Shown: piece after piece, positions 1,392 through 64,000 of the stretch
How the letters are laid out: each line of letters starts with the position of its first letter
Numbering within the stretch: position 1 is the stretch's first letter
Source: a virus
Lineage: Duplodnaviria > Heunggongvirae > Uroviricota > Caudoviricetes
Length of the DNA: 64,000 nucleotides
Reading direction: 5' to 3' (one strand)
Virus record (IMG/VR): IMGVR_UViG_2622736468_000003
Program-made: the position numbers and the translations under genes
The notes under the pieces: generated by a model
Told to the model about the DNA's origin: nothing
Databases searched by the model: none
What the model saw: only the letters and a program-made list of their open reading frames with translations

Positions 1392-1425
1392 ATTTTCGCC
1401 ATTAAAAACCGCCCGAAGGCGGTTG

Positions 1426-1677
1426 TCAGTTGATTGATATGCGGCGCATTTTTCGAAGGCTGGCAATATGCTTTTCCTTCTCAATTTCTGCTTTAATCAT
1501 GTGTAGTTCGTTGTGATCGATTCGCTCAAATTCTGCATTAAATGCGCTAATTGAAGCGGCTCTGGTTCTCCCATCCAGCCTGCGGAAGATTACCTGCGTC
1601 AGAGTGATTTTGCAGACTTCAACCGGATAGTTGTTGGCATCGACGAAAGACTGCCCGCGCTGGATCAGAACGAACAC
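1426..1677 (-). CDS. Hypothetical small early protein
   Basis: 83-aa ORF between exo and xis on the same strand; no motif recognised. Confidence 0.35.
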   Translation of the reverse strand: MFVLIQRGQSFVDANNYPVEVCKITLTQVIFRRLDGRTRAASISAFNAEFERIDHNELHMIKAEIEKEKHIASLRKMRRISIN

Positions 1678-1725
1678 CGGTAGTATTCCTTAATTGTCAT
1701 ATCATTTGCACCTCGTTGCTACTGG

Positions 1726-2406: not shown

Positions 2407-3188
2407 GCTGCTACCTTCTGCTCTGTGACTTTCTGTTTCAGGAATCCAAGAACCTTCACAGCTTCAGCCTGTGTTAGTTCTGAAGATGTGTAAATGTTGC
2501 GGCGAAAAATCTGGGAACAGAGCGGCAACAGGTCGTCATCCCACGTTTTTTCCATGGAAGTAAGAAGGGCGTTAATTTCCGACATGGTTTCTTCGTTAAC
2601 CGGGGTGATGTCGCGTTCCGGCTGACGTTCTGTAGTATATGCAGTATTTTCGACAATACGCTCGGCTTCATCCTTGTCATAGATGCCAGCAAATCCGAAG
2701 GCCAGGCGAGCACACTGAATCATGGCTTTGTGCCGTAACATCCGTTTGGGATGCGACTGCCACGGTCCGGTGATTTCTCTGCCTTCGCGGGTTTTGAATG
2801 GTGCGCGGCGACATTCATCCATCCACTCGGTAACGCAGATCGGGTGATTGCGATCTTTGCGGTAAATCCGGCATGTACAGGACTCATTGTCCTGCTCAAA
2901 GTCCATGCCATCAAACTGCTGGTTTTCATTGATAATGCGGGACCAGCCATCAACGCCAACCACCGGAACGATGCCGTTCTGCTTGTCAGGGAAGGCGTAA
3001 ATTTCTTTCGTCCAGGGATTAAGGCCGTACTGGTTGGCGACGATCAACAATGCGATAAATTGCGCATCGCTGGCATCACCTTTAAATGCCGTCTGGCGAA
3101 GAGTGGTGATTAGTTCCTGTGGGTCGACAGAATCCATGCCGACACGTTCAGCCAGCTTCCCTGCCAGCGTTGCGAGTGCTGTACTCAT
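2403..3188 (-). CDS. bet: Lambda Red beta single-strand annealing protein (Bet)
   Basis: 261-aa protein matching recalled lambda Bet ([37 protein letters not shown]...); start overlaps exo stop. Confidence 0.93.
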
Positions 3189-3193
3189 CCGTT

Positions 3194-3490
3194 TTATACC
3201 TCTGAATCAATATTAATTTGGTGACGGGCGATGGTTTCAGCCATGTAGCGGATGTGTTCTGCCATGCGTTCCTGAAAATCGACATCGTCATCAAATGCTC
3301 GGGTAATGGCCTGTTTGCTGGCACCACAGCGTTGTAGGCTATCTATGCAGAGCGATTCAAACAGGCGCTGGGGCAGTCCTTTTTCCAGGTCGTCCGCCAA
3401 CTCTGCTTCAGTTTCTTCACGGGCAATTTTCCGGTAGTGTCGTGCCCATGACAGCTCTTCAATGCGATCGGGGATAAGCCAGGCATTCAT
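3194..3490 (-). CDS. gam: Gam, RecBCD inhibitor
   Basis: 98-aa protein matching recalled short-form lambda Gam ([39 protein letters not shown]). Confidence 0.85.
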
Positions 3491-5558: not shown

Positions 5559-5665
5559 TGTATTTAAACCTCTGGCTGGATTAGAATTAGCGGCCCTTTG
5601 TCTGATTTCTCCGAATACGGTGACGCAGGGAGAAATCCGGTAGCCTGCGCTGCCGGATTTTTATT

Positions 5666-5845
5666 TCAGTGGAAGGTTGCCTGGTTTGCTGTTTTGTGAG
5701 TTGTTTTTCCCTTTTCGTGCTGGCATTCAGGGCAGTCGCACTCAGAATTTTCTCTTGCAAACTCAAGATCCTGCGCCAGTGTATGGATTTGTTGTACTCC
5801 AATGTTGCTTCTGACAACTTCACGTGCAGCATGAATATATGGGCT
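5666..5845 (-). pseudogene. 3' fragment of a 127-codon early gene split by IS629
   Basis: Removing IS629 and one copy of the CTT duplication joins this frame exactly to ORF 7157..7365, giving ...SCGLNGKTPSPYIHAAREVV... with no stop until 5666. Confidence 0.6.
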
Positions 5846-5900
5846 TTGAACCGCCCCGGGAATCCTGGAGACTAAACTTCCTGAGAAAGAGGTAAACAGG

Positions 5901-8126: not shown

Positions 8127-8336
8127 ATGACACAAGAAGAAAAAGTGATGTTTCTGATGAGGCTGGCTGTCGATACCTACAACACACAATTCAGGGAGAA
8201 AGATATACCTCAAAAGGCAGTTCCTGCCGCGGTAGATAAGGGCGGTGCTATTGCCGTATTTTACGATGCATTTGAATCATTTTTTGATGAAAAACTCGAC
8301 GCTGTTAGCGACTTCGGAACATCGAGTAATAAATAA
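8127..8336 (+). CDS. Hypothetical small protein, opposite strand to the pL operon
   Basis: 69-aa ORF with AAGGAG Shine-Dalgarno 8 nt upstream. Confidence 0.35.
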   Translation: MTQEEKVMFLMRLAVDTYNTQFREKDIPQKAVPAAVDKGGAIAVFYDAFESFFDEKLDAVSDFGTSSNK

Positions 8337-8685
8337 CGTTCATTACGGTTCTTAAACAACAATCAGTGGGCTTGATGTTGTTCTTTTCAAGCTCACTTGC
8401 CATCACTTCCATTATTCTTGCACTTACACGAATTATTTGGTGGCTGTAAGTGACGCAACTATCGCTGATATTGCTGTTTATTTCTATTACTTCATTTTCA
8501 CCATTAGCATCAACTTCGGATGCGCTGTTTTCATTATCCTGTTTCAGTGCTTTTTCTGCCATCTGGATGCGTGTCAGCGTTGCGGAATTTGGGCTAAGTC
8601 GATAAACCTGTCTGGCATCTTCCAGAAGCAGGGCGATAATGTGCTTCAGTTCTGTTTCGTTCATAGTTAACTCCGGTAGTTGCAA
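8305..8685 (-). CDS. Hypothetical protein
   Basis: 126-aa ORF downstream of N in the leftward operon. Confidence 0.4.
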   Translation of the reverse strand: MQLPELTMNETELKHIIALLLEDARQVYRLSPNSATLTRIQMAEKALKQDNENSASEVDANGENEVIEINSNISDSCVTYSHQIIRVSARIMEVMASELEKNNIKPTDCCLRTVMNVIYYSMFRSR

Positions 8686-10452: not shown

Positions 10453-11353
10453 TCAGTTATCCTTTAATAACCTATACAGTTTTGTAGGGGTACATCCTGA
10501 GGATATTGTTAAGTTCGTAGCACGCCTTTTCCGCCCATCATCGTATAAACGAAAACCAGTAGTAGACGAATTTTCTGCGTCAAAAACTATAGACAGTATA
10601 GCGTCCCCAGACTTTTTTTGCCATTCGCATGTGCCGTTAGTTGGTTTCGTCATCTGTAGACGCCAGTCAAGAACGCCATCACTTATAGCTGAGAGATCGT
10701 TTAGTACATCTAGTACGGATTGATATCTTTCATTTGGATCTACATGAATGCATTTGTTCACTATTGTTATTAATTTTTTATGTATATGGGGAGGATACTC
10801 TTTTAATGGATAGCAGCCATTAATTATCGACTCTCTGAGTTGTTCAATCGTGCTAAATGCAGATCTTTCTCTTTCAAAATTATCATGTCCAACACACATT
10901 CTATATATGGTTAATCCTGCCTGATATATGTCATATGTGAAATTATAATCATTTGTTGATAAAGAAAAATATTCCGGTGGCACATGAAAATGATATCCAA
11001 ACTCAGGCGCAGCTCTCGATTCCTCATTGACTAACTGAGATAATCCAAAGTCAGATAGCATGGCCTCATTTCTGTTTGATATCATAATGTTATTAGGTTT
11101 TATATCAAAATGCATAAGACCTTTTGAGTGTATATGATAAAGTCCACTTAAAAATTGAATGGAATACCGTATTATCTCCCTGCTTGTAAGATTATTTTTT
11201 TTCATTAATTGGTTTAGCGAACCATTATGATAAAATGGCATGGCTATATAGATATTGCTCTCACATTGAGCAGCATACTGAACTTGCACAATATTTGGAT
11301 GTGCATGTTTATAGAGAAGCCTTGCTTCATTAAAGTAGTCGTCGTGGTTAGTG
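10453..11353 (-). pseudogene. stk: Hanks-type Ser/Thr protein kinase, 3' part (split by IS66 element)
   Basis: Catalytic loop HFDIKPNN, DFG motif SDFGLS, PPE motif; frame runs to the IS boundary at 11353. Confidence 0.8.
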
Positions 11354-11424
11354 GTAAGCGTACAGCCTGAACCGTCTGGTCAGAATCTGACGAATTAGAC
11401 AAAGTGGTGTCCACCAAATAAGCA

Positions 11425-25421: not shown

Positions 25422-25615
25422 TGAATGCTAAAATTCAAACGATACCTGAATTACTGATCTGCACCAGGGGAAATCAGACAGAAGTCGCCAGAATACTGAA
25501 CTGCAATCGTGCCACAGTCAGAAAATACATTGATGATAAAGATGCGAAAAAGCACGCCGTCGTCAATGGCGTCCTTATGGTTCATCGCGGATGGGGTAAA
25601 GATACTGATGCGTGA
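25418..25615 (+). CDS. ninH: NinH-like protein
   Basis: 65 aa; [25 protein letters not shown] and VLMVHRGW resemble recalled lambda NinH. Confidence 0.7.
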
Positions 25616-25988
25616 TATCCGGCAGGTTCTTGAGCGCTGGGGGGCATGGGCGGCAAATAACTATGAGGATGTTACATGGTCGCCCATTGCTGCCGGATTT
25701 AAGAGGCTGATCCCCGAAAAAGTAAAATCACGTCCACAGTGTTGTGACGATGACGCGATGATTATATGCGGGTGCATGGCTCGCCTTAACAGGAACAACA
25801 GCGATCTGCATGACTTGCTGGTGGATTACTACGTGTTGGGGGAGACGTTCATGGCGCTGGCCCGTAAGCATGGATGCTCTGATGGAACTATCGGTAAAAA
25901 ATTACAGAAAGCGGAGGGCGTGGTTGAAGGGATGTTAATGTTACTTGGTGTCAGACTGGAAATGGACCGATATGCGCAACGCCTCTGA
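25608..25988 (+). CDS. Q: Q late antiterminator (phage 21/933W type)
   Basis: 126 aa from ATG 25608; [17 protein letters not shown] zinc motif; sits between the nin genes and the lysis region. Confidence 0.75.
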
Positions 25989-26119
25989 CAGGAGGCGTTT
26001 GCCGTTCACTATGTGAAGTGTGTCAATTTGTGAGCGTTATGCTGTTTACTTTATAGTACAGGGACGTAAGAGTTATCTACCTGTTAATAACATATATACA
26101 ACAATGAACAGGGGGCAAA

Positions 26120-26713
26120 ATGGACATTGAAGATTTTCTGGAGGCGGAAGACAATGATCTGTCTCTGTGGAATGATGATATTTTAAGCATTGACTGGTTC
26201 GTTATCCTCAAAGAGCTTTTGAAATACCAGAACAGGTTAAAGTTAAACTATTCAGAATTACTTCTGCTGGCTAATTTTGTTTCATTTCACCAGGACGTAG
26301 ATTCGCAAACATTACCATCAATATCTCTTTTTGCCACCAGAATGCGTGCATCTCGTGCCATTATAGAAGAAGGCTTTCAACGCCTGGAGGAGAAAGGGAT
26401 GTTGCAGAAGATAAGTTATGCTCAAATCGGTCATGATTATGATTTGCGGAACGTTTATGACATCAAGCCATTAATTCGTAAGTTAATTGAGGTGCTGAAA
26501 ACCGAGTATGATAAAAAGCACACTTGCCCCCTCTGCGGCAAAATAGCTGTCTCTGATGAGGAAATTGAGAAAAAATTCGGATTCAGAATTTGCGGGAATA
26601 AGAAAAGGCCGCAAAGCTGGTGCCGTTCATGCAGAAGCACGAAACAACGCAGACTGAATTCATCGCTAATTGGCAAAAAAAAGCCCCGAAAATCTCCGCC
26701 CGAGGTGGTGTGA
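26120..26713 (+). CDS. Hypothetical protein, AT-rich moron downstream of Q
   Basis: 197 aa; C-terminal CPLCGK...CRSCRS zinc-ribbon-like and basic tail. Confidence 0.5.
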   Translation: MDIEDFLEAEDNDLSLWNDDILSIDWFVILKELLKYQNRLKLNYSELLLLANFVSFHQDVDSQTLPSISLFATRMRASRAIIEEGFQRLEEKGMLQKISYAQIGHDYDLRNVYDIKPLIRKLIEVLKTEYDKKHTCPLCGKIAVSDEEIEKKFGFRICGNKKRPQSWCRSCRSTKQRRLNSSLIGKKKPRKSPPEVV

Positions 26714-26825
26714 AGCGTCGCGGAACCCCGGATTCCACTCACGATTGAACGAGGTGCTAAAAAGTATTTTACGTACGTAAAAATCTGCATATCATGATAA
26801 GAGTGGTTACATTGCCACGCTGCTT

Positions 26826-26852
26826 AACCCGCCGATGCGCGGGTTTTTTTGT
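26826..26852 (+). terminator. Rho-independent terminator
   Basis: CCGCCGATGCGCGG hairpin followed by a run of seven T. Confidence 0.45.
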
Positions 26853-27030
26853 ACCCAGAATCCTGTGAGCTATACGGAAAGTACACAGAAAGGAAGGTAC
26901 GACCGCAATTAATAACAAAATCTTAAAAATCTCATATGGCACTATTAGTTTTCTAAATATTGTATATTTTAAGTATTGCAGGATAACCCTGTAACGAAGT
27001 TTGCGTAACAGCATTTTGCTCTACGAGTTT

Positions 27031-27061
27031 GCCAGCCTCCCCTGGTGGCTGGCTTTTTTTG
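27031..27061 (+). terminator. Rho-independent terminator
   Basis: GCCAGCC...GGCTGGC hairpin followed by a T-run. Confidence 0.4.
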
Positions 27062-27545
27062 TATCCGTTCAACGGGAATGTTACATACCTCACAATTAAG
27101 TCAGTTGAATGTTGTCTGCCCGGATGAGAATTTGTTAGAAAAAACTGCATGGTGAATCCCCCTGAGCGGAGGGGCGACTGGTGACGGTATAATCTCTGAT
27201 TATCAAAACGAGAATGACGCGGGTTTAGTGGCACCGGGCTGAACTCACCGGGAGGCACCCGGCACCATGCAATGGCACATAGCGCCACTCTCCAGCCCCT
27301 CTCCGGAGGGGCTTTCTTATGGACAAAAAAGCCCGCGCTGGGAGACGCGGGCGGCAAGGAATAAACAATGAAACGTGAAGTAATATTTCAGCTGGCGAAT
27401 AATACCCCATAGTAATCACTCTGCGCAACTGCGCGACCTTTTTCGAATTGCGGGCTGTAGTCTCCCTTCTGCCATTGTCCTGTAACTTCCGGACTTCAGC
27501 CCGCTCCTTATTTTACTCACAATATTATCCCGGCCGGGAGGATTC

Positions 27546-29109
27546 ATGGCATTTAAACACTATGATGTTGTCAGGGCGGCGTCGCCGTCAGACCTTGCGA
27601 AACGAATAACTCAAAAACTGAAGGAAGGGTGGCAGCCTTATGGTAGTGCGCTGATTTCGACAGCTGGTTATGGTGCGGAGTTCATCCAGCCAGTTGTGAG
27701 TGAGGGGAGCATCTCATCACCAGAGGAGCCAGGCAACCGTCCGACGACCTCAGCGCCTTCTGTTGCGCCAGAATATTACTATGTGATCGCGCTTGCTGGT
27801 CAGTCCAATGGTATGTCATACGGTGAGGGACTGCCATTACCGGATACATTCGACAGCCCTGATCCACGTATTAAACAGTTAGCGCGTCGCAGTACGGTGA
27901 CACCGGGCGGTGCAGCATGCAAATATAACGACATCATTCCGGCGGACCATTGTCTGCATGATGTGCAGGACATGAGCCGTCTTAACCATCCGAAAGCGGA
28001 CCTGTCAAAGGGGCAGTACGGAACCGTGGGGCAGGGGCTGCATATCGCCAAAAAACTGCTGCCGTTTATACCGGCGAATGCGGGCATTCTGCTGGTTCCG
28101 TGCTGTCGTGGTGGTTCAGCGTTCACCACCGGAGCTGATGGCACATACAGTGACGCGAGTGGCGCCTCGGAGAATTCAACCCGCTGGGGTGTGGACAAGC
28201 CGCTGTATAAGGACCTTATCGGTCGAACAAAAGCGGCACTGGAGAAGAACCCGAAAAATGTGCTGTTTGCCGTGGTGTGGATGCAGGGGGAATTTGATTT
28301 TGGCGGTACGCCGGCAAATCATGCCGCACAGTTTGGTGCGCTGGTTGATAAATTCCGTGCAGACCTGGCGGATATGGCAGGCCAGTGCGTCGGTGGCTCT
28401 GCTGGCGGTGTTCCCTGGATATGCGGGGACACGACGTATTTCTGGAAGCAGAAGAACGAATCCACGTACCAGACGGTGTACGGCAGCTATAAAAATAAAA
28501 CGGAAAAGAATATCCATTTCGTACCGTTCATGACCGATGAGAACGGGGTGAATGTGCCGACGAACAAACCGGAAGAAGACCCGGACATTCCGGGTATCGG
28601 TTATTACGGTTCGAAATGGCGTGACAGCTCAGCCACCTGGACGTCACAGGACAGGGCGAGCCATTTCAGTTCATGGGCTCGCCGTGGGATTATTTCCGAC
28701 CGTCTGGCAACGGCGATTCTGAGCTGCGCGGGTAAGTCTTCTGCGTTTGTTAATGGTACTGCCGGGGTGGTTGTTCCAGACAGACCGGTTACCACCTCAG
28801 AGTCTGTAATTTTTTACGATGCCAAAAAAGCTACAGACAATCAGCTGAAACCCTATGGCTGGGACGGTGTGTATGGCAGGCGCACACTGGTTGATGACAG
28901 CGGCAATAAAGCTCTGCGAATTGAGAAAAATAACAGCGCGAAATCCTGGTCAATGTACTGTGATATTGCTGCAGACAAGGCAAAACTTTTACTGGAAAAA
29001 GGCGGGGAAATTGCTGTCCGGTTTAAAATCCCCGAAAACGTCAATCTTGAGACAACCAGAAACAAGTATGCCTTTGGTTTGTACTGGCGAATAGCGGAAT
29101 GGCCGGGTG
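27546..29109 (+). pseudogene. nanS: Prophage sialate O-acetylesterase (NanS-p type), 5' part, split by IS629
   Basis: N-terminal MAFKHYDVVRAASPSDLAKRITQKLKEGWQPYG domain followed by a SASA-type esterase core; ORF ends in IS-derived codons. Confidence 0.75.
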
Positions 29110-29163
29110 TGAACCGCCCCGGGAATCCTGGAGACTAAACTTCCTGAGAAAGAGGTAAACAGG

Positions 29164-29490
29164 ATGACTAAAAATACTCGTTTTTCCCCCGAAGTCCGTC
29201 AACGGGCAGTCCGTATGGTTCTGGAAAGTCAGAGCGAATATGACTCACAATGGGCGACAATTTGTTCCATTGCTCCAAAGATTGGCTGTACGCCGGAGAC
29301 TCTGCGTGTCTGGGTTCGCCAGCATGAGCGGGATACCGGGGGCGGTGATGGAGGGCTCACCACCGCTGAACGTCAGCGTCTGAAAGAGCTGGAGCGTGAA
29401 AATCGTGAACTGCGCCGCAGTAACGATATCCTTCGCCAGGCTTCCGCTTATTTTGCGAAGGCGGAGTTCGACCGCCTCTGGAAAAAATGA
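29164..29490 (+). CDS. IS629 transposase OrfA
   Basis: Identical to the copy-1 OrfA. Confidence 0.9.
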
Positions 29491-30377
29491 TGCCACTGCT
29501 GGATAAGCTGCGTGAGCAGTACGGGGTCGGACCGCTATGCAGCGAACTGCATATTGCCCCGTCAACGTATTACCACTGTCAGCAACAGCGACATCATCCG
29601 GATAAACGCAGTGCCCGTGCGCAGCGCGATGACTGGCTGAAGAAAGAGATACAGCGCGTATACGATGAAAATCACAAGGTATACGGTGTGCGTAAAGTCT
29701 GGCGTCAGTTGTTACGGGAAGGTATCAGAGTGGCCAGATGCACTGTGGCACGTCTCATGGCGGTTATGGGACTTGCCGGTGTTCTCCGGGGTAAAAAGGT
29801 CCGTACGACCATCAGCCGGAAAGCCGTTGCCGCAGGCGACCGCGTAAACCGTCAGTTCGTGGCAGAACGACCTGACCAGCTGTGGGTGGCTGATTTTACT
29901 TACGTCAGCACATGGCAGGGCTTCGTCTATGTGGCGTTCATCATTGATGTGTTTGCCGGATACATCGTGGGGTGGCGGGTCTCATCGTCCATGGAAACGA
30001 CATTCGTGCTGGATGCACTGGAGCAGGCGTTATGGGCCCGTCGACCGTCCGGCACGGTCCATCACAGTGATAAAGGTTCTCAGTATGTATCGCTGGCCTA
30101 CACACAGCGGCTTAAGGAAGCCGGATTACTGGCATCAACAGGAAGTACAGGCGACTCGTATGACAACGCGATGGCGGAGAGCATCAATGGTCTTTACAAA
30201 GCGGAGGTAATACACCGTAAGAGCTGGAAAAACCGGACAGAAGTGGAGCTGGCCACACTCACGTGGGTGGACTGGTATAACAATCGACGATTGCTGGAAA
30301 GGCTGGGCCATACTCCTCCGGCAGAAGCAGAAAAAGCTTATTATGCTTCCATCGGAAACGATGATCTGGCAGCCTGA
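29487..30377 (+). CDS. IS629 transposase OrfB
   Basis: Identical to the copy-1 OrfB. Confidence 0.9.
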
Positions 30378-30419
30378 GTTCACAGATAAAACACTCTCCA
30401 GGAAACCCGGGGCGGTTCA

Positions 30420-30770
30420 GGTGAGGGTGGTGAAGGCCATCTGAGTTCTTTCTTTGTCCAGACAGATAAAGCCAGTATTAATGTTGCATACCATCATACA
30501 GTTAATCAACAAAAAGAACTTGGCACGTTTGGCGCATTCGACCATGACTGGCATACGCTTGCATTTAAATTTAAGGGCAGTAACAGCATTAATGTTACTC
30601 CGGTGCTCGATGGTGTGGATGGACAGGCGTTTGACCTGGTGAAATGGGCCAATACTGCTAATGGACTCAACAGGTTTGTCATTACGGATATTACAGGTAG
30701 TGCAGAAACCTACCCTGTACTTATTGATACGGTGGAAGTTAAAGCAAACAAAGCTGGAGCAGCCGCATAA
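30420..30770 (+). pseudogene. nanS: NanS-p-type esterase, 3' part
   Basis: After removing the IS and one GGTG copy, the frame continues 116 codons (…EGGEGHLSSFFVQTDKAS…) to TAA at 30768-30770. Confidence 0.7.
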
Positions 30771-54076: not shown

Positions 54077-54733
54077 ATGGGCGGAAAAAAAGGCGGTGGT
54101 GATACCAAAGTAAAACCAACAGCAGCGCAAATAGCACAGGAAGAAGTGGCCTGGAAAGGGTGGCAGGATTATCAAAAAATCCTCCGCCCGGCTGAAGATA
54201 ACTTCATGGAAAAGGTCGATGACCTGAACAGTGAGCAGCAGTACGACAATATTGCTGGCACCACAAATCTGGGGTATCAGAAACAGTTTGGCGAAGCACG
54301 GAAGGAGCTGGCGGGTAATCTTGCTCAGTCCGGTGTTGACCCGTCCAGTGGTCGCTTTAACGCGGTAATGAATGCGAACCAGAGTGATCAGGTAACCGGG
54401 CAGATTGACACAACCACACGGGGGCAGGTATCGCAGGCAGATAAGTATGTTGCCGGGCTACAGGATGTTGCTGCTCTCGGTTCTGGTCAAAAGGCGGATG
54501 CGTTACAGAGTTTTAACTCGCTGGCAGACAGCAGTCTGGCAAAAGCTAAATCGGACGCACAGGCTGCGTTTACGAAACAGCAGGGGCGAGCCTCTCTTGT
54601 TGGCGCTGGTTTGGGTGCGGTAGGTGCATATGCGATGTATAAGGCTGGCGGTAGCGGAGGAAGTGGCGGTGCTAAAACACCAGGCACCGGCGCTAATGCC
54701 ATTCAGCATCAGGCTCAGAACTGGAGACTGTGA
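54077..54733 (+). CDS. Hypothetical virion-module protein (Gly/Gln/Ala-rich)
   Basis: 218-aa ORF. Confidence 0.4.
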   Translation: MGGKKGGGDTKVKPTAAQIAQEEVAWKGWQDYQKILRPAEDNFMEKVDDLNSEQQYDNIAGTTNLGYQKQFGEARKELAGNLAQSGVDPSSGRFNAVMNANQSDQVTGQIDTTTRGQVSQADKYVAGLQDVAALGSGQKADALQSFNSLADSSLAKAKSDAQAAFTKQQGRASLVGAGLGAVGAYAMYKAGGSGGSGGAKTPGTGANAIQHQAQNWRL

Positions 54734-55182
54734 TTATGGAGTACGGTAAATACGAAACACTTGCGAGATACGGTTATACCGGAGCTGCCCGTCCACAGGG
54801 TGACTGGCAGACGTCAGCAGCGCTGACACGCCAACAATACGACGACTGGCGAACCAGATATTTGCCCCGCGTGGCAAGGCTGGCTGACCTTGGCGAGAAC
54901 AACAGCCTGATGAATGCACAGCTTGCCCGGGTGGGCGGCCTTGCCACTTCCAGTCTCCGTACAGCGCAGATGGCGCAGGATAACCAGATGGCGAGATACG
55001 GGGTAAGCCGCCCGGATAATCCCAACAGTAACACACTGGGTTTGCGTAATGCTCTGGCAATTGCTGGCGCGAAAAATGGTATCCGTGAAGCAGAGCAGGA
55101 TCGCCAGATGAACATACTGACGGGGGCTTCTGCACCTGCAAGACAACAACTGAGTGTTGGCGGAAAACTGGTGTCAGCGTAA
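54730..55182 (+). CDS. Hypothetical protein
   Basis: 150-aa ORF overlapping the upstream stop. Confidence 0.4.
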   Translation: MIMEYGKYETLARYGYTGAARPQGDWQTSAALTRQQYDDWRTRYLPRVARLADLGENNSLMNAQLARVGGLATSSLRTAQMAQDNQMARYGVSRPDNPNSNTLGLRNALAIAGAKNGIREAEQDRQMNILTGASAPARQQLSVGGKLVSA

Positions 55183-55191
55183 GGGGGCAAT

Positions 55192-55443
55192 ATGGGATAC
55201 GGTTTACTGGATATTGCGAATCAGTCGCGGCGTGAGGCATTACAGGGAATAAGTGATGCCGACAGACGACGTGAAGAAATTGAGGCCGCGAACAAACAGA
55301 TGGCGGCGCAACAGAAAGCGCAGAACAAACAGAATATCGGCACGGGAATTGGTACGGGTGCAGCTATGGGCGCTGCTGTTGGTGGTCTCCCCGGTGCGGC
55401 TATTGGTGCTGTCATAGGTGGTATTGCTGGTTCTTTGTTTTAA
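55192..55443 (+). CDS. Small protein with C-terminal glycine-zipper membrane segment
   Basis: GTGIGTGAAMGAAVGGLPGAAIGAVIGGIAGSLF. Confidence 0.4.
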   Translation: MGYGLLDIANQSRREALQGISDADRRREEIEAANKQMAAQQKAQNKQNIGTGIGTGAAMGAAVGGLPGAAIGAVIGGIAGSLF

Positions 55444-55453
55444 GGAGTGGTGA

Positions 55454-56719
55454 ATGAGCGGATTTGCACAGGGTTTACTTGCCGGATTCAGCACGGTTGA
55501 CCAGGCAATGACCCGTCGTAAGGAACTTGGTTTGCGAGAAGCACAGCTTGCTCAACAACAGAAAAATAACGAGCGCGATTTTGAATTTGCACAGTCGCAG
55601 TTTGAACATAATAAAGACGTTGATCAGCGGAACTTTGATTACAGAGCCAAAGTCGACGACCGTAATTATGCACTGCAGGAAAGGGAGTTTAACGCCAACC
55701 AGAATTACCGGAATGCGTCGCTGGGTATGGAGCAGCAGCGACTCCGGATGCAGAAATACAACCAGCGACGGCTTGAGTATAACGATATGCTGGCGCGCGA
55801 TCAGCCTGTGATGGCGGCGCTTGGAAAGGCTGTGGATGCTGGCGATCGGGATGCAGCAATGCGTCTTTACGGCCAGTTGTCAGAGGGTAATCCGCTGAGG
55901 CTGATGGCGAATGATGGCTATGTAGCGAAAGCGGGTCAGGCCGTGAACAACCTGCAAAAAATCTTTGATGACAAGCCAGACAGGGCTATCGCTTCACTTA
56001 ATACGCCGGAGAATCTTGATGTCCTTTCCGGGGTGTTTGGCCCGGAACTGCAACAGCGTATTGGCATGCCCGATTCAACCGGGAAAAAGACGATAAAAGA
56101 GGCCAGGATTGGCAGTATAGTACCGGCACAGCAGGAAGGGTACATACTTATCGGCCTTGATCTCACATACAGTGATGGCTCTACAGCACATAAACCCGTT
56201 ACGGAATACGGCAGTGCACATCCTGATGATCAAACCGTGCTGGCGGTGCCTGTTGATAAGGCTGTTGAGCTTGTCAGGGATCGCAGTAAATTCGCGGAAA
56301 TTTCGAAAAATTTCGGCTATTTCACGCCGAAGCAGCAGGGACTTTCTGCGGATCAACTTCAGAAAGGAGCCAGCCAGGTAGCGATAAAGGTTGCACAGGA
56401 CGGCGGTGATGCGCAGGGAGCAGTGACGCAATATTATGCTTCGATGGGACTGCCGCAGTATCAGCAGCAAATTCAGCAGCAAAAAATTCAACAAGGGATT
56501 ACCAGTTGGGCGGGTGATGATCCGGATAAGCAGGCATTTGCCAGAGAAGTGGCCTCCCGTCAGCCAGAAATGCTGGAGCCTCAGAATCAGAAATTGCTGG
56601 AACACGGGTATGCGAATTTTCTCCGTATTCAAAAGGCCAGGGGGGAACAGGCCAGGGATGATAGCGCGGCCTCTGCATCTGAGTTTATCCGTGGTCTGAA
56701 ACAGAATTACGCGCAGTAA
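55454..56719 (+). CDS. Hypothetical protein (Gln-rich, coiled-coil)
   Basis: 421-aa ORF; terminator-like hairpin at 56752-56777. Confidence 0.4.
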   Translation: MSGFAQGLLAGFSTVDQAMTRRKELGLREAQLAQQQKNNERDFEFAQSQFEHNKDVDQRNFDYRAKVDDRNYALQEREFNANQNYRNASLGMEQQRLRMQKYNQRRLEYNDMLARDQPVMAALGKAVDAGDRDAAMRLYGQLSEGNPLRLMANDGYVAKAGQAVNNLQKIFDDKPDRAIASLNTPENLDVLSGVFGPELQQRIGMPDSTGKKTIKEARIGSIVPAQQEGYILIGLDLTYSDGSTAHKPVTEYGSAHPDDQTVLAVPVDKAVELVRDRSKFAEISKNFGYFTPKQQGLSADQLQKGASQVAIKVAQDGGDAQGAVTQYYASMGLPQYQQQIQQQKIQQGITSWAGDDPDKQAFAREVASRQPEMLEPQNQKLLEHGYANFLRIQKARGEQARDDSAASASEFIRGLKQNYAQ

Positions 56720-56787
56720 TTCACCATTCCCGTTAATACTATTTCCTGATACCCGGTCATTGTGCCGGGTTTTTTTATGGAGTCTGT

Positions 56788-59700
56788 ATGGCTTATTCCG
56801 ATGAACAGCGCCCTGAAGCGCAATTTGGCAACCAGAGCCGCAACAGCCTGAACATTCAGCAGCCGGGAGAGACTGACAGCTATGATGTGTTTTTCTCCGA
56901 TCCCAATCGCTGGAAGGACAACAGCACGTCGTTCAGCCTGGGCGATGTATTGCCAACTATGGGGAAAGGTGTCGCCCAGTCCGTCCGGGGGACAGGGGAA
57001 ATGGCCCGTGGACTCGGTGATGCGATGATTCAGAGCCCGGTAAAAACAGGGGCACGTATTTTAAATGAGTTCAGCCGTATGGGGCTGCCGGGAGTCGCAA
57101 CTGTTCAGGATATTTTTGTCGGTGGCAGCAAGGGGGCGGATGAGGTCATCGACACTCTGCCTGATGGAAAAAATGCGGTTACTGATACTGTCGGTAAAGG
57201 TCTGAAGGTCACAGGCAAGGCAGTCAGTGGCGGCGCTAAAGCCTCGGATGAATGGCTGACTGGCAAGATGTCGCCGGGGGCGCAGCGGGCGCTGAATACA
57301 CCGATGACTGAAGGATATGATGATTCAGCGGTCTGGGTAGCGAAAGGGGTTAACCTGATTGGTGCGCTTGTACCGGATATGGTTGCAGGCGGTGTGACTA
57401 AAAAGCTGGGTGATGTCACTCTGCGAAAAGTGCTGACCGCCGGGCTGGAGAAAAAATACATCGCGGCAGGGATGCAGCCGGAAAGAGCCACAGCACTGGC
57501 AGCCGAAGCTGTCGATAAAAAAATGCCGGATTTTTTCCAGGCAGGCCTGATCACCCATTCCACTGTCAGTGCGCAAGGGCGGAGTGCAATGGCAGCGGCA
57601 GATGCTGTTCTTAACGCGGATTATTCTGAGCTGGCGAAGTCACCGAAATTTCAGCAGACCTTTTTGTCAATTGATGCAGATCCGCAGCACGCGCAGCTTA
57701 CTGACCGCCAGAAAATGGACCTGGCAAAAGAGCGTGTTGCCGATGAGGTGCGTGCGCAACTGGCAACCGATCCTGAATTGCTGGCTGTGAATGCCATGGC
57801 GGCAAAACTGGGCGATGCTCAGTTGCTTAATCTGGCGATGCGGGGCACGGCGAAGACCGTTAAAAGCGGCATTGTCAGAAATGCCACGGAACAGGGGACG
57901 ATTAATGCGGCGCAGGGTGGCTATTTACGCTATCAGGAAAACACGGCATTGCGTGAGACCGCCGGAATGGATGTGTCACCGTGGGAGGGCGTGGCTGACG
58001 CAACGATCGAAGGTGCAGCCCTTGGTGCTGCAATGGGGGCACCATTCGGTGCGGCTGCCGGATATCGTGGAAAACGTCAGGCGGCAGATGAAGCAGCCAT
58101 GCGTGAGGCTGAAAGCGTTCCTCAGGACGAATCGGCTCCGCAACCCGAACCGGTTGATCCGGTGGCACAGCATCGTGAATCTATGCAGGGGATGAATCGC
58201 GAGCAGCTTCTGGAACAGTATGCTGATGCGGATATGGCACATGAGGGAGACACGTCTGCCGTTCATCGCCGGGAAGCCGCCAGCCAGCTGTTGAATGAAC
58301 TGGATGAACAGGCGAAGCGACAGGCGGTGATGGATGAGCTGAAGGCGAAGCCGCGCCCTGAACTGCTTGAGGAATACCGAAAACTCAGCCAGAAGGAAGG
58401 GCGTACTGATACTGAAGAGCAGCAGTTACAGGCAATACGTGATGTGCTTCGCCCTCAGCGGGAGGCCAGACCGGAGGCACAGCCACAGCCGGAAAATGCG
58501 GATGATGGCGACGGGAGTATTTACCCGACGGTGCGGTTCCGCGATCCGGATGAAGTTCGTATTGAAATTAACGAGAGTGGTGCGTCCAGACCAGCAGAAC
58601 GCATTGAAAAGGTGCGTCCGGACAACCGTTATTTCACGGATGAAAAAAGTGCTCTGGGGAGCGACGTTTTCCGCAATGCCAGCGCCACCGGCCTGAAACC
58701 GTCCGTAGTGAAGAAAGGCGAGAATCAGTATGCCGTTGAAATGGATAATCCTGCGTTCTCTGAAGATGTGGCAACGGAGACCATTAACACTCTGGCTGAC
58801 GGAGAGCGTATTACTGATGCTGATCCGATGGAACAGCCCGCGTTCATGCGTGACCCGCGATTCCGTGGTTTTACGGGGGATGATACAGAAGTGCAGGCCC
58901 GTCTTGCCCGTGGCAACGCGCCGACGGCGGAAGAACTGGTGCGTTCCCAGATGGCTGAAGGTGATGCCGGTCCGACAGCACAGGAGTTAACTGAGCGTCC
59001 ACGCCTTCCCGCTCCCGGCGATATTCATCCCGGACAGGGATATCCGTTACCAGGAGAAGTAGCGCGTACGCCGGATGAAAATCAGGCCGGACGTGGTGGT
59101 CGTTTTACCACAACCGGTGAGGTGAAGGGCCAGAGTTTCCAGAAAGGACGTGCGCAGGCACCGGAAAATGCCGCTGGTCGCCAGGGGGAAATACTGGAGG
59201 GCGAAACAGTTCGTCGTGGTCTGCCGTCACCGGATGAGCAGAACGCCACAGCACCAGTGCGTGAAGGACTTCCTGCACCTGAAAGTCAGCGTGGGGTTGA
59301 TATGCCACAGCCTGAATCACTCCCTCGTATGGTTCGTGACTCCCTTCCGGAACTGGCACAGCAGGCAGAAGCACGCAGACAGACCGGGGATAATCGCCAG
59401 ACCATAACCGATGTTCCGGATACTGAGGTGCCGGTGCCGGTAGATAAACCGAGCACTCACCAGCAGGCGCGTGGTGCGAAAATTGAAGACTTTGGCGAGG
59501 AGATTAAGGGCGCGGCAAAACACCGTTATGCGCAGCTTGCTGAAGCTATGGGTAAAACGCTGGAGGATGGGGAGTACGCGACACAACCACTGAGCAAACT
59601 GTTTCCAAAGCCGGATTATGCCCGTCTGGAAAAAGAAGGTGTGGATAGTGACACGCTGGCAATGATGGCGTTGTATCGCAGTGAAATTCCCACCAGAACA

Positions 59701-62700
59701 AGCCGTAACATGCAGAAATGGATCAGCATTGTTAAAAGCGGTCGCGAAGCTACTGCCGGTATGCTGGAGGGGAAAATTCCGGCAGCGAAACTGGCTGATA
59801 TGATGGACAGTAAGCCGGGGTTACGGAGCATGTCGGATACCTGGAAACTGCTCCGTACGCTTTCTGCATTGCAGATTGATAAAGCATCCGGCTATCGTGT
59901 CAGGTCCGGTGTTTATTCGTTTGTCGGGGGAAAACGTTACGATCCGCCGCAAATGATGTATTCGCTTCGTGATAGCAAGGGGCGCGACCTCTTTTTCTCG
60001 GAAAGCCGGGATGAGTTACTGAAAAAGGCGAAAGCATATTTCGATGAACAAGGCTCCAGAGAAAGGGAAACGCCAGCAACCTCTGCTGATGACAGAATAA
60101 CCTTTGACGTGTACCGGCATAAGGCCAGTGGCGACATTTTTATCGGTTATGGCAAAAACAGGCAGAAACTGAAGGGCGGTTTTGAGTCTGCCCGTGATGC
60201 ACATGATTATGTGCGCACACATCGTGATGAGCTGGTTAATCAGGTGAAGGCGCTGCGTGAAGTCTCGCGTGAGGAGCAGCGTAACGCCACCAACCGCGAT
60301 CGTACCGGACCAGAACGCCGCAAGGGGGATGTTTCGCCGGAGCAGTTCAGTGATGCGTTTGGTTTTCGTGGTGTGCAGTTTGGTAATTATGTGGAAAGTC
60401 CGCGTCGTCAGGCTGATTTGAACCGGGCTTATGACTCGCTGCATGACCTGGCTGACGTGCTGAACGTGCCGACAAAAGCGCTTTCTCTGAACGGTCGTCT
60501 TGGGCTTGCTTTTGGTGCCCGTGGTAAGGGTAAGGCGGCGGCACACTATGAGCCGGGTGAGGTGGCAATCAACCTGACAAAAGGTAACGGACCGGGGGCG
60601 CTGGCCCACGAATGGTTCCATTCACTGGATAATTATTTTGGTCGTTATGATGTTTCCACTGACGGGAAGATCACGTCAGGTGGCGACTATATGACGGAAG
60701 CACAGCGTGCCGGGCGCGTATTTAAAGACGGCAGGTATGTTGATGCGGAATATCCGGTACGTCAGGAGGTTTACGACGCGTTTAAAGGCGTGATGAAAGC
60801 CATTAACAGCAGTGACATGTTGCGTCGTTCTGAACGCCTGGATGGCGTTCGTTCAAAACCGTACTGGTCAACGGATGTTGAAATGGCGGCGCGAGCCTTT
60901 GAGCGTTATGTTCAGGATAAAGCGCGTATGGCTGGCGTGGAGAATGATTATCTGGTCAATATCCGTAAGGCGGATGACCATGGACAGCCGGACACCTACG
61001 CTTATCCGACGAATGCAGAACTGGATGGCGGTATTCGTGAGGCATTCGATCACTTGTTCCGAACACTGAAAACCCGTGAGACGGACAAGGGAGTTGCGTT
61101 TTATTCCCGTAAGGGCGTGACCCGCACACCTGAAGGCAATCTGATTTCGGATGTTAACCGCAGTGCGGAAGCCAAAGGCAGTCCGGTCCCGCAGGTTGAA
61201 GCTGTTGCCCGTGGCGTGATTAGTGGCATTAAGGACAGTGACCTGAAGGTCCGCGTGGTGAAGTCACAGAAAGAGGCTGAAGCACTGGCGGGTGAATCAT
61301 TCGACGGTTACGGCAAGGTGCACGCGTTCTATCGTCCGGATAAACGTGAAATTGTCCTGGTGGCGGATAACATCCCTGACGGGCGGACCGTTCGCGAGAA
61401 GTTACGTCACGAGATTATTCACCATGCAATGGAGCATGTAGTCACGCCAGCGGAATATCAGACGATTATTAAGACCGTGCTGAAAACCCGTGACAGTGAT
61501 AACGCCACCATCCGTGAAGCCTGGCGTAAGGTTGATGCGTCTTATGGTAAGGAATCACCGGAAGTGCAGGCGGGTGAATTTCTGGCGCATATGGCAGAGA
61601 AGCAGCCGATTAAATTCGTGGCGGCATGGGAGCGTGTTGTTGCCCTGGTCAAAGGGGTACTGCGTCGTACGGGGTTACTGAAGCCGACGGAACTGAACGA
61701 TATCAGACTTGTTCGCGAAACTATTCGCACGTTAGGCCAGCGTGTGCGGGAAGGTTACACGCCGCGTGAGGATGGCGCGGACGCATCGTCTCAGTACTCC
61801 CGTAGCGGTAAGCCTGATCCGTTCAAAGTGCCGGAAGGTGAGGGCGAGCGTTATCGTGATGACCTTGCCAGAATGATGAAGTCTCTGCGCTCAACGGATT
61901 TAACGGTAAACATCGGGCGTACGCCGCCGGTATTGCGTCACCTTGGCGCACCAGATTTGCCGCTGGTTATCTCCCGCGACACTGTGCGTAAGGCCACCAA
62001 TGGTGTGAAACATGTGGTGCCGATGGATGTTATCGAGAGACTACCGGAACTGATGCACGATCCGGATGCAATTTACCGTTCCGCGACAGAAAGAAACGCG
62101 GTTGTGATGCTGCTTGATGCCGTGGATAAAAATGGTGATCCGGTGGTGTCAGCGGTACACATGAAGGCTGTCCGGTCGCGCCTGGAAATCAACAAGGTGG
62201 CATCTGTTTACGGTACGGAAAACGGGAAAAAACTGAAGAGTATGGAAATGACCGGTTTAACGTTGTACCGGAGAGAAAAATTAAGCCGCGATAACCTTCT
62301 GCACAGAGGGCTCCAATTGCCCAAAGGGGAACATTCTTATCGCGGCTCTGTTGATAAAATACTCTATCCTGAAGATATTCGCAAGGGGCCGTATTACTCC
62401 CGCACCAGCAGTCTGACGCCGGAGGAGACAATTGCATCCCGTTTTGTTCGCCAGATGCAGGATAAATTCCAGGTGCTGAAGGCGGTGCAGGAGAATATCC
62501 GTAAAACTGGCGGAAAAATAGATGACAGCAATAACGCCTATATGGCTGAAGAACTCTTCCACGGGAAGGCGGAAAACGACCTGAACGTAATGAAGGAGCG
62601 CTACGTTCAGCCGCTGGCCAAATTGCTGGCGGACTACAAAATTGCGCAGGCCGATCTGGATGAGTACCTCTACGCCCGTCACGCGCCGGAACGTAACGCG

Positions 62701-64000
62701 CATATTGCGAAAATCAACCCGAAAATGCCGGACGGCGGTTCGGGGATGACCAACGCGGAAGCGGCGGAAATCATGCAGCGTGTGCGTAACAGCGGCAAAC
62801 AGGCACAGTATGACCGTCTGGCAGGGATTATTGACGATATGCTGGCCCGTCGCCGTGAGATTATCCGTGAGGCAGGACTGGAAGAGAGCGGCGTGGTGGA
62901 TGCCTGGCAGAAAGCCTACCGTTACTACGTCCCCCTGAAAGGGCAGGATGTTGACGGTGTGGTGTCACAGCCACGTACAGGCAAGGGATTCACCATCGGC
63001 GGGCGTGAAAGTAAGCAGGCCATGGGGCGTGCATCCCGCGCACAGTCTCCTTCCACTCAGGCGATACAGGATTTGAGTGAATCGCTGATCCGCAATCGCA
63101 AAAATGAAGTGGGTAACGCCTTCCTGAAACTGGTACAGGATAATCCCGACAAGGATTACTGGCAGGTATTCACTGATGACAGACCGGATACAATGCGTGT
63201 GATTGCAGAGCGCAAGGACCAGGAAACTGGTGAAACCATTCGCGAAGTTGTCGAGCGCCCTGTGCCGATGGCAATGATGGCGGATCGCTACTTCACCACC
63301 AAAAAGGACGGCAAAACTTACTACATTAAACTTCATGATCCGCGCCTGATGCGTGCGATGAAGAACATGGGGCCGGAAACCAGTAACGCCGTAATCCGTA
63401 CGCTGGGGAAAGTTAACCGCTTCCTGGCAACGGTGAACACGTCGTATAACCCGGAATTTCTGGTCAGTAACTTCATCCGTGACGTGCAGACTGCGGTGAT
63501 GAACCTGAAGGCTGAGCAGGGAAGAAGCGACGGCAAACTGAAAGGGCTGGATAACTTATCCGCGCTGGCTGTGGTGAAAGACAGCCGTTCCGCCATGTCA
63601 GCCGTATACGCAAGTCTGCGGGGTAAAACCCTCACGGGCAAAGGCGCACAGTGGCAGAAAGTGTGGAAAGAGTTTGTTGAGGACGGAGGTAAAACCGGCT
63701 GGTTTAACATGGGGGACCTTGAAGGCCAGCAGAAGGAAATGGATCGCCTTGTGTCGCTGGCGAAGGGCGGATGGAAAGGCCAGAGTATCGGTGCATGGCA
63801 TTCGTTCCTGAACCTGGTCGAGGATGCCAACGGCGCGGTTGAAAACGCTCTGCGTCTTTCTGCCTATAAACACGCCCGTGATGCCGGTTTGTCACGCCAG
63901 CAGGCGGCATCTCTTGCCAAAAACATGACGGTGAACTTTAACCGTCGTGGTGAGCAGGGAGCGCTGATGAACTCGCTGTATATGTTTGCCAACGCCAGCA
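56788..64000 (+). CDS. Giant multidomain virion protein, partial (runs off the window)
   Basis: ATG 56788 after a terminator and GGAG; frame 1 stays open by manual translation to 64000 (over 2400 codons); absent from the ORF track presumably because it has no stop in the window; HEXXH motifs HEWFH (60607-60621) and HEIIH (61408-61422). Confidence 0.7.
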   Translation, partial: MAYSDEQRPEAQFGNQSRNSLNIQQPGETDSYDVFFSDPNRWKDNSTSFSLGDVLPTMGKGVAQSVRGTGEMARGLGDAMIQSPVKTGARILNEFSRMGLPGVATVQDIFVGGSKGADEVIDTLPDGKNAVTDTVGKGLKVTGKAVSGGAKASDEWLTGKMSPGAQRALNTPMTEGYDDSAVWVAKGVNLIGALVPDMVAGGVTKKLGDVTLRKVLTAGLEKKYIAAGMQPERATALAAEAVDKKMPDFFQAGLITHSTVSAQGRSAMAAADAVLNADYSELAKSPKFQQTFLSIDADPQHAQLTDRQKMDLAKERVADEVRAQLATDPELLAVNAMAAKLGDAQLLNLAMRGTAKTVKSGIVRNATEQGTINAAQGGYLRYQENTALRETAGMDVSPWEGVADATIEGAALGAAMGAPFGAAAGYRGKRQAADEAAMREAESVPQDESAPQPEPVDPVAQHRESMQGMNREQLLEQYADADMAHEGDTSAVHRREAASQLLNELDEQAKRQAVMDELKAKPRPELLEEYRKLSQKEGRTDTEEQQLQAIRDVLRPQREARPEAQPQPENADDGDGSIYPTVRFRDPDEVRIEINESGASRPAERIEKVRPDNRYFTDEKSALGSDVFRNASATGLKPSVVKKGENQYAVEMDNPAFSEDVATETINTLADGERITDADPMEQPAFMRDPRFRGFTGDDTEVQARLARGNAPTAEELVRSQMAEGDAGPTAQELTERPRLPAPGDIHPGQGYPLPGEVARTPDENQAGRGGRFTTTGEVKGQSFQKGRAQAPENAAGRQGEILEGETVRRGLPSPDEQNATAPVREGLPAPESQRGVDMPQPESLPRMVRDSLPELAQQAEARRQTGDNRQTITDVPDTEVPVPVDKPSTHQQARGAKIEDFGEEIKGAAKHRYAQLAEAMGKTLEDGEYATQPLSKLFPKPDYARLEKEGVDSDTLAMMALYRSEIPTRTSRNMQKWISIVKSGREATAGMLEGKIPAAKLADMMDSKPGLRSMSDTWKLLRTLSALQIDKASGYRVRSGVYSFVGGKRYDPPQMMYSLRDSKGRDLFFSESRDELLKKAKAYFDEQGSRERETPATSADDRITFDVYRHKASGDIFIGYGKNRQKLKGGFESARDAHDYVRTHRDELVNQVKALREVSREEQRNATNRDRTGPERRKGDVSPEQFSDAFGFRGVQFGNYVESPRRQADLNRAYDSLHDLADVLNVPTKALSLNGRLGLAFGARGKGKAAAHYEPGEVAINLTKGNGPGALAHEWFHSLDNYFGRYDVSTDGKITSGGDYMTEAQRAGRVFKDGRYVDAEYPVRQEVYDAFKGVMKAINSSDMLRRSERLDGVRSKPYWSTDVEMAARAFERYVQDKARMAGVENDYLVNIRKADDHGQPDTYAYPTNAELDGGIREAFDHLFRTLKTRETDKGVAFYSRKGVTRTPEGNLISDVNRSAEAKGSPVPQVEAVARGVISGIKDSDLKVRVVKSQKEAEALAGESFDGYGKVHAFYRPDKREIVLVADNIPDGRTVREKLRHEIIHHAMEHVVTPAEYQTIIKTVLKTRDSDNATIREAWRKVDASYGKESPEVQAGEFLAHMAEKQPIKFVAAWERVVALVKGVLRRTGLLKPTELNDIRLVRETIRTLGQRVREGYTPREDGADASSQYSRSGKPDPFKVPEGEGERYRDDLARMMKSLRSTDLTVNIGRTPPVLRHLGAPDLPLVISRDTVRKATNGVKHVVPMDVIERLPELMHDPDAIYRSATERNAVVMLLDAVDKNGDPVVSAVHMKAVRSRLEINKVASVYGTENGKKLKSMEMTGLTLYRREKLSRDNLLHRGLQLPKGEHSYRGSVDKILYPEDIRKGPYYSRTSSLTPEETIASRFVRQMQDKFQVLKAVQENIRKTGGKIDDSNNAYMAEELFHGKAENDLNVMKERYVQPLAKLLADYKIAQADLDEYLYARHAPERNAHIAKINPKMPDGGSGMTNAEAAEIMQRVRNSGKQAQYDRLAGIIDDMLARRREIIREAGLEESGVVDAWQKAYRYYVPLKGQDVDGVVSQPRTGKGFTIGGRESKQAMGRASRAQSPSTQAIQDLSESLIRNRKNEVGNAFLKLVQDNPDKDYWQVFTDDRPDTMRVIAERKDQETGETIREVVERPVPMAMMADRYFTTKKDGKTYYIKLHDPRLMRAMKNMGPETSNAVIRTLGKVNRFLATVNTSYNPEFLVSNFIRDVQTAVMNLKAEQGRSDGKLKGLDNLSALAVVKDSRSAMSAVYASLRGKTLTGKGAQWQKVWKEFVEDGGKTGWFNMGDLEGQQKEMDRLVSLAKGGWKGQSIGAWHSFLNLVEDANGAVENALRLSAYKHARDAGLSRQQAASLAKNMTVNFNRRGEQGALMNSLYMFANAS

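Follow-up and report, generated by a model that had tools for sequence, protein, structure and literature searches.

A giant gene closing the virion module of a 933W-type prophage: a predicted polyvalent protein with two zincin-fold domains and an RNase-like domain

The stretch of DNA analysed here (64,000 nucleotides, hereafter the window; IMG/VR record IMGVR_UViG_2622736468_000003) is, judged from its sequence, a 933W-type (Shiga-toxin-type) short-tailed Escherichia coli prophage, and its last 7.2 kb are occupied by a single giant gene, the subject of this study. On the plus strand, frame +1 is open from 56788 to the window end at 64000, and translation yields 2,404 codons with no stop. This open reading frame (ORF) is missing from the ORF listing because it runs off the end of the window, as a first-pass annotation of the same DNA had supposed. 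The ATG at 56788-56790 is preceded by a GGAG ribosome-binding site (56779-56782) at a spacing of 5 nt, the closest in-frame stop 5' of it is found at 56734, and RefSeq gives the O104:H4 and Stx2-86 orthologues described below the same start. Guanine-cytosine contents of 0.645, 0.438 and 0.552 at the three codon positions are as expected for coding sequence. The full gene could be followed past the window in the copy carried by an O104:H4 prophage, where the stop is reached after 2,783 residues; codons 1-2404 of the roughly 2,783, or 86% of the gene, fall inside the window.

Inspection of the surroundings of the start revealed, by pattern scan, a terminator-like hairpin, ACCCGGTCATTGTGCCGGGT, followed by a T-run (56751-56777, plus strand). 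It lies between the gene of a 421-aa virion protein and the giant gene, directly 5' of the ribosome-binding site of the latter, and it might reduce expression of the giant gene relative to the upstream virion genes, barring read-through by Q antitermination. Minus-strand ORFs are also seen inside the giant gene in the window (for example 60016-60621), and the GenBank record of phage phi24B (HM208303) has three small ones within its own copy, at 8192-8515, 10667-11047 and 11398-11769; the antisense ORFs annotated in phi24B are most likely shadow ORFs, not genes.

The first-pass annotation had also pointed to two HEXXH motifs, near 60607 and 61408, and both stand where it had placed them. The giant ORF contains exactly two such motifs, HEWFH at residues 1274-1278 (60607-60621) and HEIIH at residues 1541-1545 (61408-61422); when the protein was shuffled 5,000 times, the mean number of HEXXH motifs was 0.037 and the probability of two or more was 0.0008. 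Hydropathy analysis gave no convincing transmembrane helix: the best 19-residue means were only 1.2-1.4 (residues 181-199 and 2435-2457), and membrane insertion is therefore not claimed. The full 2,783-residue protein is devoid of cysteines. A tape-measure or tail-fibre protein was considered and rejected, the repeat search having returned one trivial 28-nt repeat and the Pfam scan no domain of either kind.

Among phage records, 186 match the 7.2-kb stretch with identities of 90-96%, nearly all of them Shiga toxin (Stx)-converting short-tailed phages, and the stretch is also matched in 426 of 5,426 complete E. coli genomes. The closest copy belongs to a 933W-type prophage of E. coli O104:H4 that is stx-negative and sits in the ynf operon; identity is 99.4% across the last 10 kb, with six differences in 2,404 residues. 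In that prophage the gene (8,352 nt, 2,783 aa, annotated "LPD38 domain-containing protein") is 99.4-99.9% identical to the giant gene, annotations naming either an LPD38 or an LPD5 domain protein. Among the phages proper, gp35 of Stx2 phage 86 (YP_794082; 2,783 aa, "LPD5 domain-containing protein") shares 96% nucleotide identity, and gp47 of phi24B (vb_24B_48, ADN68472), a protein of 2,811 aa as called in a 2026 preprint on this phage, shares 89.6% protein identity. In these and other 933W-type phages, the orthologue occupies the same position 3' of the 421-aa virion-protein gene, has LPD5, LPD1, MuF_C and LPD38 in common with the giant protein, and carries identical catalytic residues. In annotated relatives the gene is the final one of the virion module, preceded by terminase, portal, N4-gp56-type capsid and tail genes and then four small co-oriented genes. 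The earlier suggestion of a giant multidomain protein ending a podovirus-like virion module is thereby made precise: the module is that of a 933W-type short-tailed prophage, and the giant gene closes it.

Domain scans partitioned the protein from end to end (all features on the plus strand). An N-terminal Gly/Ala-rich module, N1 (residues 1-460, 56788-58167), is common to 37 of 149 giant relatives; it contains a weakly hydrophobic stretch (residues 181-199) and a weak glycine-zipper-like stretch (residues 406-433, Gly-zipper matches being sub-threshold), and no family could be assigned to it. There follows a long, acidic, proline-rich linker of low hydropathy (residues 461-1046, 58168-59925), in which the Pfam scan detected no domain and whose C-terminal part is the most variable among Stx-phage alleles. 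Next come Pfam LPD5 (residues 1047-1190, 59926-60357, E 3.8e-43); a predicted gluzincin-type zincin domain, domain 1 (residues about 1191-1440, 60358-61107), which includes Pfam LPD1 (residues 1351-1430, 60838-61077) as its C-terminal, Glu-bearing part; a predicted zincin-fold domain 2 (residues about 1460-1675, 61165-61812); and a MuF-C domain (residues 1740-1829, 62005-62274, E 1.2e-17). The C-terminal chassis starts at residue 1836 (62293), continues past the window end to about residue 2783, and includes LPD38 (residues 2466-2671), which lies beyond the window and was matched with E 3e-46 in the full-length orthologue. LPD5, LPD1, MuF_C and LPD38 all score over their Pfam cut-offs, which puts names to a domain set that the first-pass annotation had left to a domain scan. 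The giant protein as a whole falls in PHROG family 616 (function unknown), and the chassis matches PHROGs 14770, 10691 and 10089.

Identity to phi24B gp47 drops to 56-76% in residues 801-1200 (59188-60387, from the last part of the linker into the N-terminal portion of LPD5), with flanks mostly at 84-100%. This pattern suggests recombinational mosaicism or diversifying selection within the giant gene.

Neither HEXXH motif fell inside any Pfam match: the domain scans report neither peptidase because no Pfam model covers the catalytic cores. Searches of the PDB by sequence with residues 1038-1734 and with the full protein returned nothing meaningful (best E 0.12-0.78). A Pfam match to Peptidase_M76 (E 0.17) covered the HEXXH helix only and was rejected as below cut-off, as were local matches to Arm-DNA-bind_4 (E 7e-4), DEK_C, ABATE, WXG100 and the N-terminal Gly-zipper families. 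The two regions were characterized through their own homologues and structural models.

A search with domain 1 (residues 1172-1440) collected 410 homologues from many bacterial phyla and from metagenomes. In an alignment of 85 sequences, down to 38% identity, H1274, E1275, W1276, H1278 and E1365 are invariant, and H1253 and D1281 are at least 90% conserved (H1253, 60544-60546; D1281, 60628-60630; E1365, the predicted third zinc ligand, 60880-60882). The AlphaFold2 model built on this alignment is of high confidence (predicted local distance difference test score, pLDDT, 91.7; predicted template modelling score 0.91); in it, a helix at the N terminus is followed by three strands, by the helix with the HEXXH motif and, further on, by a helix bearing E1365. 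In model numbering, the HEXXH motif sits in helix 118-135, E1365 in helix 209-227 and H1253 in strand 98-101. Foldseek searches with this model were not significant, though zincins dominate the list. Thus domain 1 combines what is expected of a gluzincin fold, namely a conserved helical HEXXH, a predicted Glu ligand on a downstream helix, an N-terminal helix with a three-stranded sheet ahead of the active-site helix, and a resemblance of the fold to solved zincin structures. Moreover, Iyer et al. 2017 (PMC5512222) described a widespread phage-type peptidase clade with a His ending strand 2, the HEXXH motif, an Asp three residues on and a Glu on the next conserved helix, and domain 1 displays the full signature (H1253, HEXXH, D1281, E1365). 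We conclude that domain 1 is a zincin (gluzincin) metallopeptidase domain of the H...HExxHxxD...E clade with intact catalytic residues, and predict that it is active.

The model also bears on the Pfam domains around the motif. E1365 is carried by the late helix of the fold, and Pfam LPD1 is therefore the Glu-bearing C-terminal part of the gluzincin domain; on the other side, the conserved C-terminal motif of LPD5, FGFRGVQFGN, packs on the peptidase domain in the model. The NCBIfam model NF041907, CLCA_X, spans the same region (residues 1172-1427, profile positions 3-245 of 250) with 154.5 bits and E 3.2e-45, below its curated cut-off of 260 bits, and domain 1 is thus homologous to this family but not a member of it. 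Outside giant proteins, the unit exists as stand-alone proteins of about 330 aa (LPD5, HEXXH core and LPD1) encoded on phage contigs. Their genes lie in arrays of small genes divergent from terminase and portal, an early-type context and not a virion module, and no called lysis genes were found nearby.

Domain 2, covered by no Pfam or NCBIfam model (residues about 1460-1675), had to be approached by more exhaustive means: a word-indexed search found enterobacterial relatives only, while an exhaustive HMMER search gave 416 representatives at E<=1e-3, nearly all of them within proteins of 1,500-6,000 aa. Conservation across 150 aligned segments reaches 99% for H1541 and 100% for each of E1542, H1545 and E1597 (the predicted third ligand, 61576-61578). 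In several giant proteins the domain is doubled in tandem. Its model has a pLDDT of 72.5 overall and of 76-95 in the core, and places the HEXXH motif and E1597 on helices after a small sheet. The conserved HEXXH, the downstream Glu on a helix and the similarity of the modelled fold to zincins identify domain 2 as a zincin-fold metallopeptidase domain of HExxH...E type; its catalytic residues are intact and activity is predicted. Profile-profile comparison of the two domains gave a probability of only 1.5%, and they are therefore not recent duplicates; indeed, they are not detectably related beyond the strand-and-helix core.

The first-pass annotation had read the motifs as two separate zincin-type signatures, and the alignments and models bear this out, both HEXXH motifs lying at strictly conserved positions of zincin-fold domains. 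With no stop codon in the frame and no tape-measure or fibre repeats, each of the grounds on which it would have withdrawn its proposal has fallen away. It could be argued that both HEXXH domains have lost catalysis and persist as structural relics, in a protein that works solely as a scaffold or conduit; the virion RNA polymerase of phage N4, which has a similar domain, is packaged unprocessed (PMC5512222). Against this, the metal-ligand and general-base residues are invariant in hundreds of homologues at only 25-45% identity, and every catalytic residue is identical in the divergent Stx-phage alleles. Such invariance despite divergence is what selection on an active site produces, and we regard the relic explanation as very improbable.

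The MuF-C domain is of a different nature. It scores 64.3 bits against a Pfam cut-off of 27.6, and MuF-C was described by Iyer et al. 2017 (PMC5512222) as a phage BECR-fold RNase-like domain with catalytic His and Ser/Thr residues. The predicted catalytic residues of the giant protein, H1742 (62011-62013) and S1806 (62203-62205), are 100% conserved in 38 homologues, and the MuF-C region is accordingly classified as a phage BECR (PBECR) RNase-like domain whose predicted active-site pair is intact. In the phi24B preprint (2026) the corresponding region is called a "Muf-C metallopeptidase domain". Given the BECR-fold RNase-like nature of MuF-C and the conserved His/Ser pair, this label appears misassigned: the preprint puts the peptidase in MuF-C, whereas the peptidases found here lie upstream, at residues 1191-1440 and 1460-1675.

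We then mapped the segments of the giant protein on 149 giant relatives. The N-terminal module (residues 1-460) and the C-terminal block (residues 1836-2783) are recurrent, and the middle is variable. A tblastn search with the C-terminal block, matched over 80-99% of its length, found counterparts in the giant proteins of Vibrio phages (40% identity), of a Bacillus phage (32%) and of roughly 60-kb Ralstonia and Burkholderia podoviruses (27%); in these podoviruses the giant gene is annotated as transglycosylase/helicase/methylase or as "DarB-like". The giant protein can thus be described as conserved end modules flanking a lineage-specific cargo of three predicted enzymes: the gluzincin, the second zincin and MuF-C.

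This architecture has a bearing on a proposal made in the phi24B preprint, that the peptidase cuts the peptide cross-links of peptidoglycan so that the ejected protein can build a periplasmic conduit. In giants of Burkholderia phages the same chassis bears a lytic transglycosylase domain, so this class of protein does meet the cell wall, and Pfam scans found in the giant protein no lysozyme or transglycosylase domain able to do the job instead. The preprint pins the activity, though, on MuF-C, a BECR-fold RNase-like domain. Neither peptidase domain gave a Pfam match to a cell-wall peptidase, and the structural neighbours of both are protein endopeptidases. Known cell-wall metallopeptidases are mostly of the LAS type (M15/M23) and not HEXXH zincins, which likewise counts against a cell-wall substrate, as does the early-type context of the stand-alone domain 1 genes, with no called lysis genes around. 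We find cleavage of the cell wall quite unlikely.

Is the giant protein part of the particle? The phi24B preprint reports the orthologue as a virion polyvalent protein, and the supplementary figures, which give per-protein slice counts and per-peptide totals, document its abundance. In these figures gp47 accounts for 10,962 peptide-spectrum matches (PSMs) in purified virions, second only to the capsid protein; its peptides range from residue 133 to residue 2701 with comparable counts, and most of its signal comes from the four uppermost slices of the gel, at positions above that of the 79-kDa portal. The protein was invisible in the cryo-electron microscopy maps and does not belong to the ordered capsid or tail; the authors of the preprint propose that it is an ejection protein. 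On balance, we consider it probable that the giant gene encodes a virion-packaged 'polyvalent' ejection protein of 933W-type short-tailed phages. At infection the protein, until then packed in the head, would exit by way of the tail; its conserved end modules would serve packaging and envelope crossing, and its peptidases would act inside the host cell soon after infection. For domain 1, cleavage in trans of at least one host protein is the most likely role, since phages also carry it as a separate gene in early regions. Domain 2 most likely processes the polyprotein and frees parts of it, because it is usually found at the boundary of the cargo with MuF-C or with the C-terminal chassis.

Alternatively, both zincins could be purely self-processing, the polyprotein being their sole substrate, cut in the head or after ejection. 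Self-processing is the general hypothesis of Iyer et al. 2017 (PMC5512222) for the peptidase domains of polyvalent proteins, argued there with reference to the processing of P1 DdrB. The location of domain 2 at domain boundaries in most relatives agrees with it, and in the phi24B supplementary figures the PSMs of gp47 tail across several gel slices under the top one. The same figures place most of the virion gp47 signal at very high molecular weight, however; moreover, the stand-alone domain 1 of about 330 aa in phage early regions has no polyprotein to cut, and the nearest folds, lethal factor and the Pro-Pro endopeptidases, are site-specific endopeptidases acting in trans. An exclusively self-directed role for both domains is therefore unlikely in our view.

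Several points nevertheless weigh against the division of labour we favour, in which a packaged and ejected protein cuts host targets with domain 1 and itself with domain 2. The trans role of the former and the cis role of the latter are deduced from architecture only, and the model of domain 2 is of moderate overall confidence (pLDDT 72.5). The concentration of gp47 in the top slices of the supplementary gel data makes extensive processing before infection unlikely. No experiment shows zinc binding, proteolysis, ejection or a substrate for this protein or its orthologues, and our literature search found no paper on biochemical tests of polyvalent-protein peptidases.

A further step, which we offer tentatively and hold to be doubtful, would make the zincins and MuF-C pre-made anti-defence weapons, injected with the DNA, that cleave specific immunity proteins or RNAs of E. 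coli and thereby contribute to the choice of strains open to infection and lysogeny by 933W-type phages, Shiga-toxin-converting ones included; the first-pass annotation had likewise noted that ejected giants of this kind can carry enzymes aimed at host defences. If this were true, domain 1 would define a widespread, uncharacterised family of site-specific endopeptidases of the phage early phase, either packaged or expressed early.

Upstream of the giant gene, the four co-oriented genes (54077-56719, plus strand) encode products of 218, 150, 83 and 421 aa. The 218-, 150- and 421-aa products are homologues of phi24B gp51, gp50 and gp48, all three of which are detected in virions in the supplementary data of the preprint, gp48 abundantly (1,634 PSMs); these three products probably represent additional internal or ejection proteins. 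For the 83-aa product, a glycine-zipper-like match stays under the Pfam cut-off (E 4.5e-6; 26.7 bits vs 28.9), and its phi24B counterpart gives a trace signal of 13 PSMs in the same data and is not named there as a structural protein. All four products may act with the giant protein as internal or ejection proteins.

Elsewhere in the window, positions 1-5846 form the integrase end of the prophage, aligning at 97% to the region of the O104:H4 prophage that starts with the intD integrase and adjoins ynfH and dmsD. Two insertion sequence (IS) elements were observed. The first, of the IS3 family and IS629-like by size (about 1.3 kb, 29109-30420; plus-strand ORFs 29164-29490, an HTH_Tnp_1 orfA, and 29487-30377, an rve orfB), is inserted in the 3' part of a DUF1737+SASA esterase gene (27546-29138), which encodes 530 aa in the window vs 636 aa in the intact O104:H4 copy; its phi24B homologue is gp84, a capsid-decoration esterase. 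The second, of the IS66 family (2.44 kb, 34348-36791; minus-strand ORFs 34386-35924, 35974-36321 and 36318-36719 for TnpC, TnpB and a third ORF), stands in place of about 730 bp which, in the O104:H4 prophage, contain the greater part of the small-terminase gene, a loss that may leave the window prophage unable to package its DNA. A non-exhaustive look at 25500-27546, from the Q-antiterminator region to the esterase gene, saw no stx-sized ORFs; a 197-aa DnaD_N-like protein is encoded at 26120-26713. The prophage looks stx-negative, as does its closest O104:H4 relative.

All together, the giant protein is real, ordinary for its class and already known in kind. Iyer et al. 2017 (PMC5512222) described polyvalent proteins with one to five zincin peptidase domains as well as the clade signature of the domain 1 type; injected multi-enzyme giants with zincins having been published then, the conceptual advance is small. 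What is added is incremental: both peptidase domains are mapped exactly, the active site of MuF-C is predicted to be intact, and the chassis/cargo layout is laid out. LPD1 and the C-terminal part of LPD5 are reread as parts of one peptidase domain, and an apparent domain misassignment is corrected in the only structural study of such a phage. E1275, E1542, and H1742 with S1806 are direct targets for mutagenesis, in a group of phages that includes the chief vehicles by which Shiga toxin genes reach new strains of E. coli.

How does the giant protein compare with known systems? Its resemblance to anthrax lethal factor and the Pro-Pro endopeptidases (MEROPS M34) and to MtfA (M90) is at the level of the fold only, with 7-14% identity; there was no M34/Pfam ATLF match even at E<=1 to 10, and no PDB match by sequence. 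The match to ArdC, an antirestriction protein of conjugative plasmids, is weak, and the giant protein differs from it in having no ArdC-N DNA-binding domain and in being associated with phage delivery rather than conjugation. The virion RNA polymerase of N4 offers a parallel: it is a giant protein carried in the head of a podovirus and ejected at infection, and according to PMC5512222 the region required for its encapsidation contains a zincin-like peptidase domain. An N4-like polymerase was rejected for the giant protein, the Pfam and NCBIfam scans having found no RNA polymerase domain and no sequence similarity having been detected. An antirestriction protein of the P1 DarB type was rejected as well: no helicase or methyltransferase Pfam domain was found, and the match to the 'DarB-like' PHROG 10089 covers only residues 1883-2056.

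Among the closest systems are also the 'DarB-like' giants of Bcep22-like Burkholderia phages (Bcep22 gp75, JC1 gp69, DC1) and of Ralstonia GP4-like phages, in which the C-terminal block of about 800 aa is homologous (27% identity over 80-85%). The Bcep22-like giants take the same position at the end of a 933W-related virion module and are present in virions by mass spectrometry; in phage JC1, whose structural genes are related to those of 933W, the giant protein was confirmed in this way. Their cargo is annotated as transglycosylase, helicase and methylase, whereas the giant protein has two predicted zincins and MuF-C instead. The "polyvalent proteins" of Iyer, Burroughs, Anand, de Souza and Aravind 2017 (PMC5512222) are large single polypeptides in which at least two unrelated domains are joined, enzymatic and LPD domains among them, and their genes lie with the late or virion genes of phages and prophages or on conjugative elements. 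The giant protein, a large prophage-encoded polypeptide, last in its virion module, with LPD and MuF_C domains above cut-off and two zincin-fold domains, is on these predicted features a member of the class.

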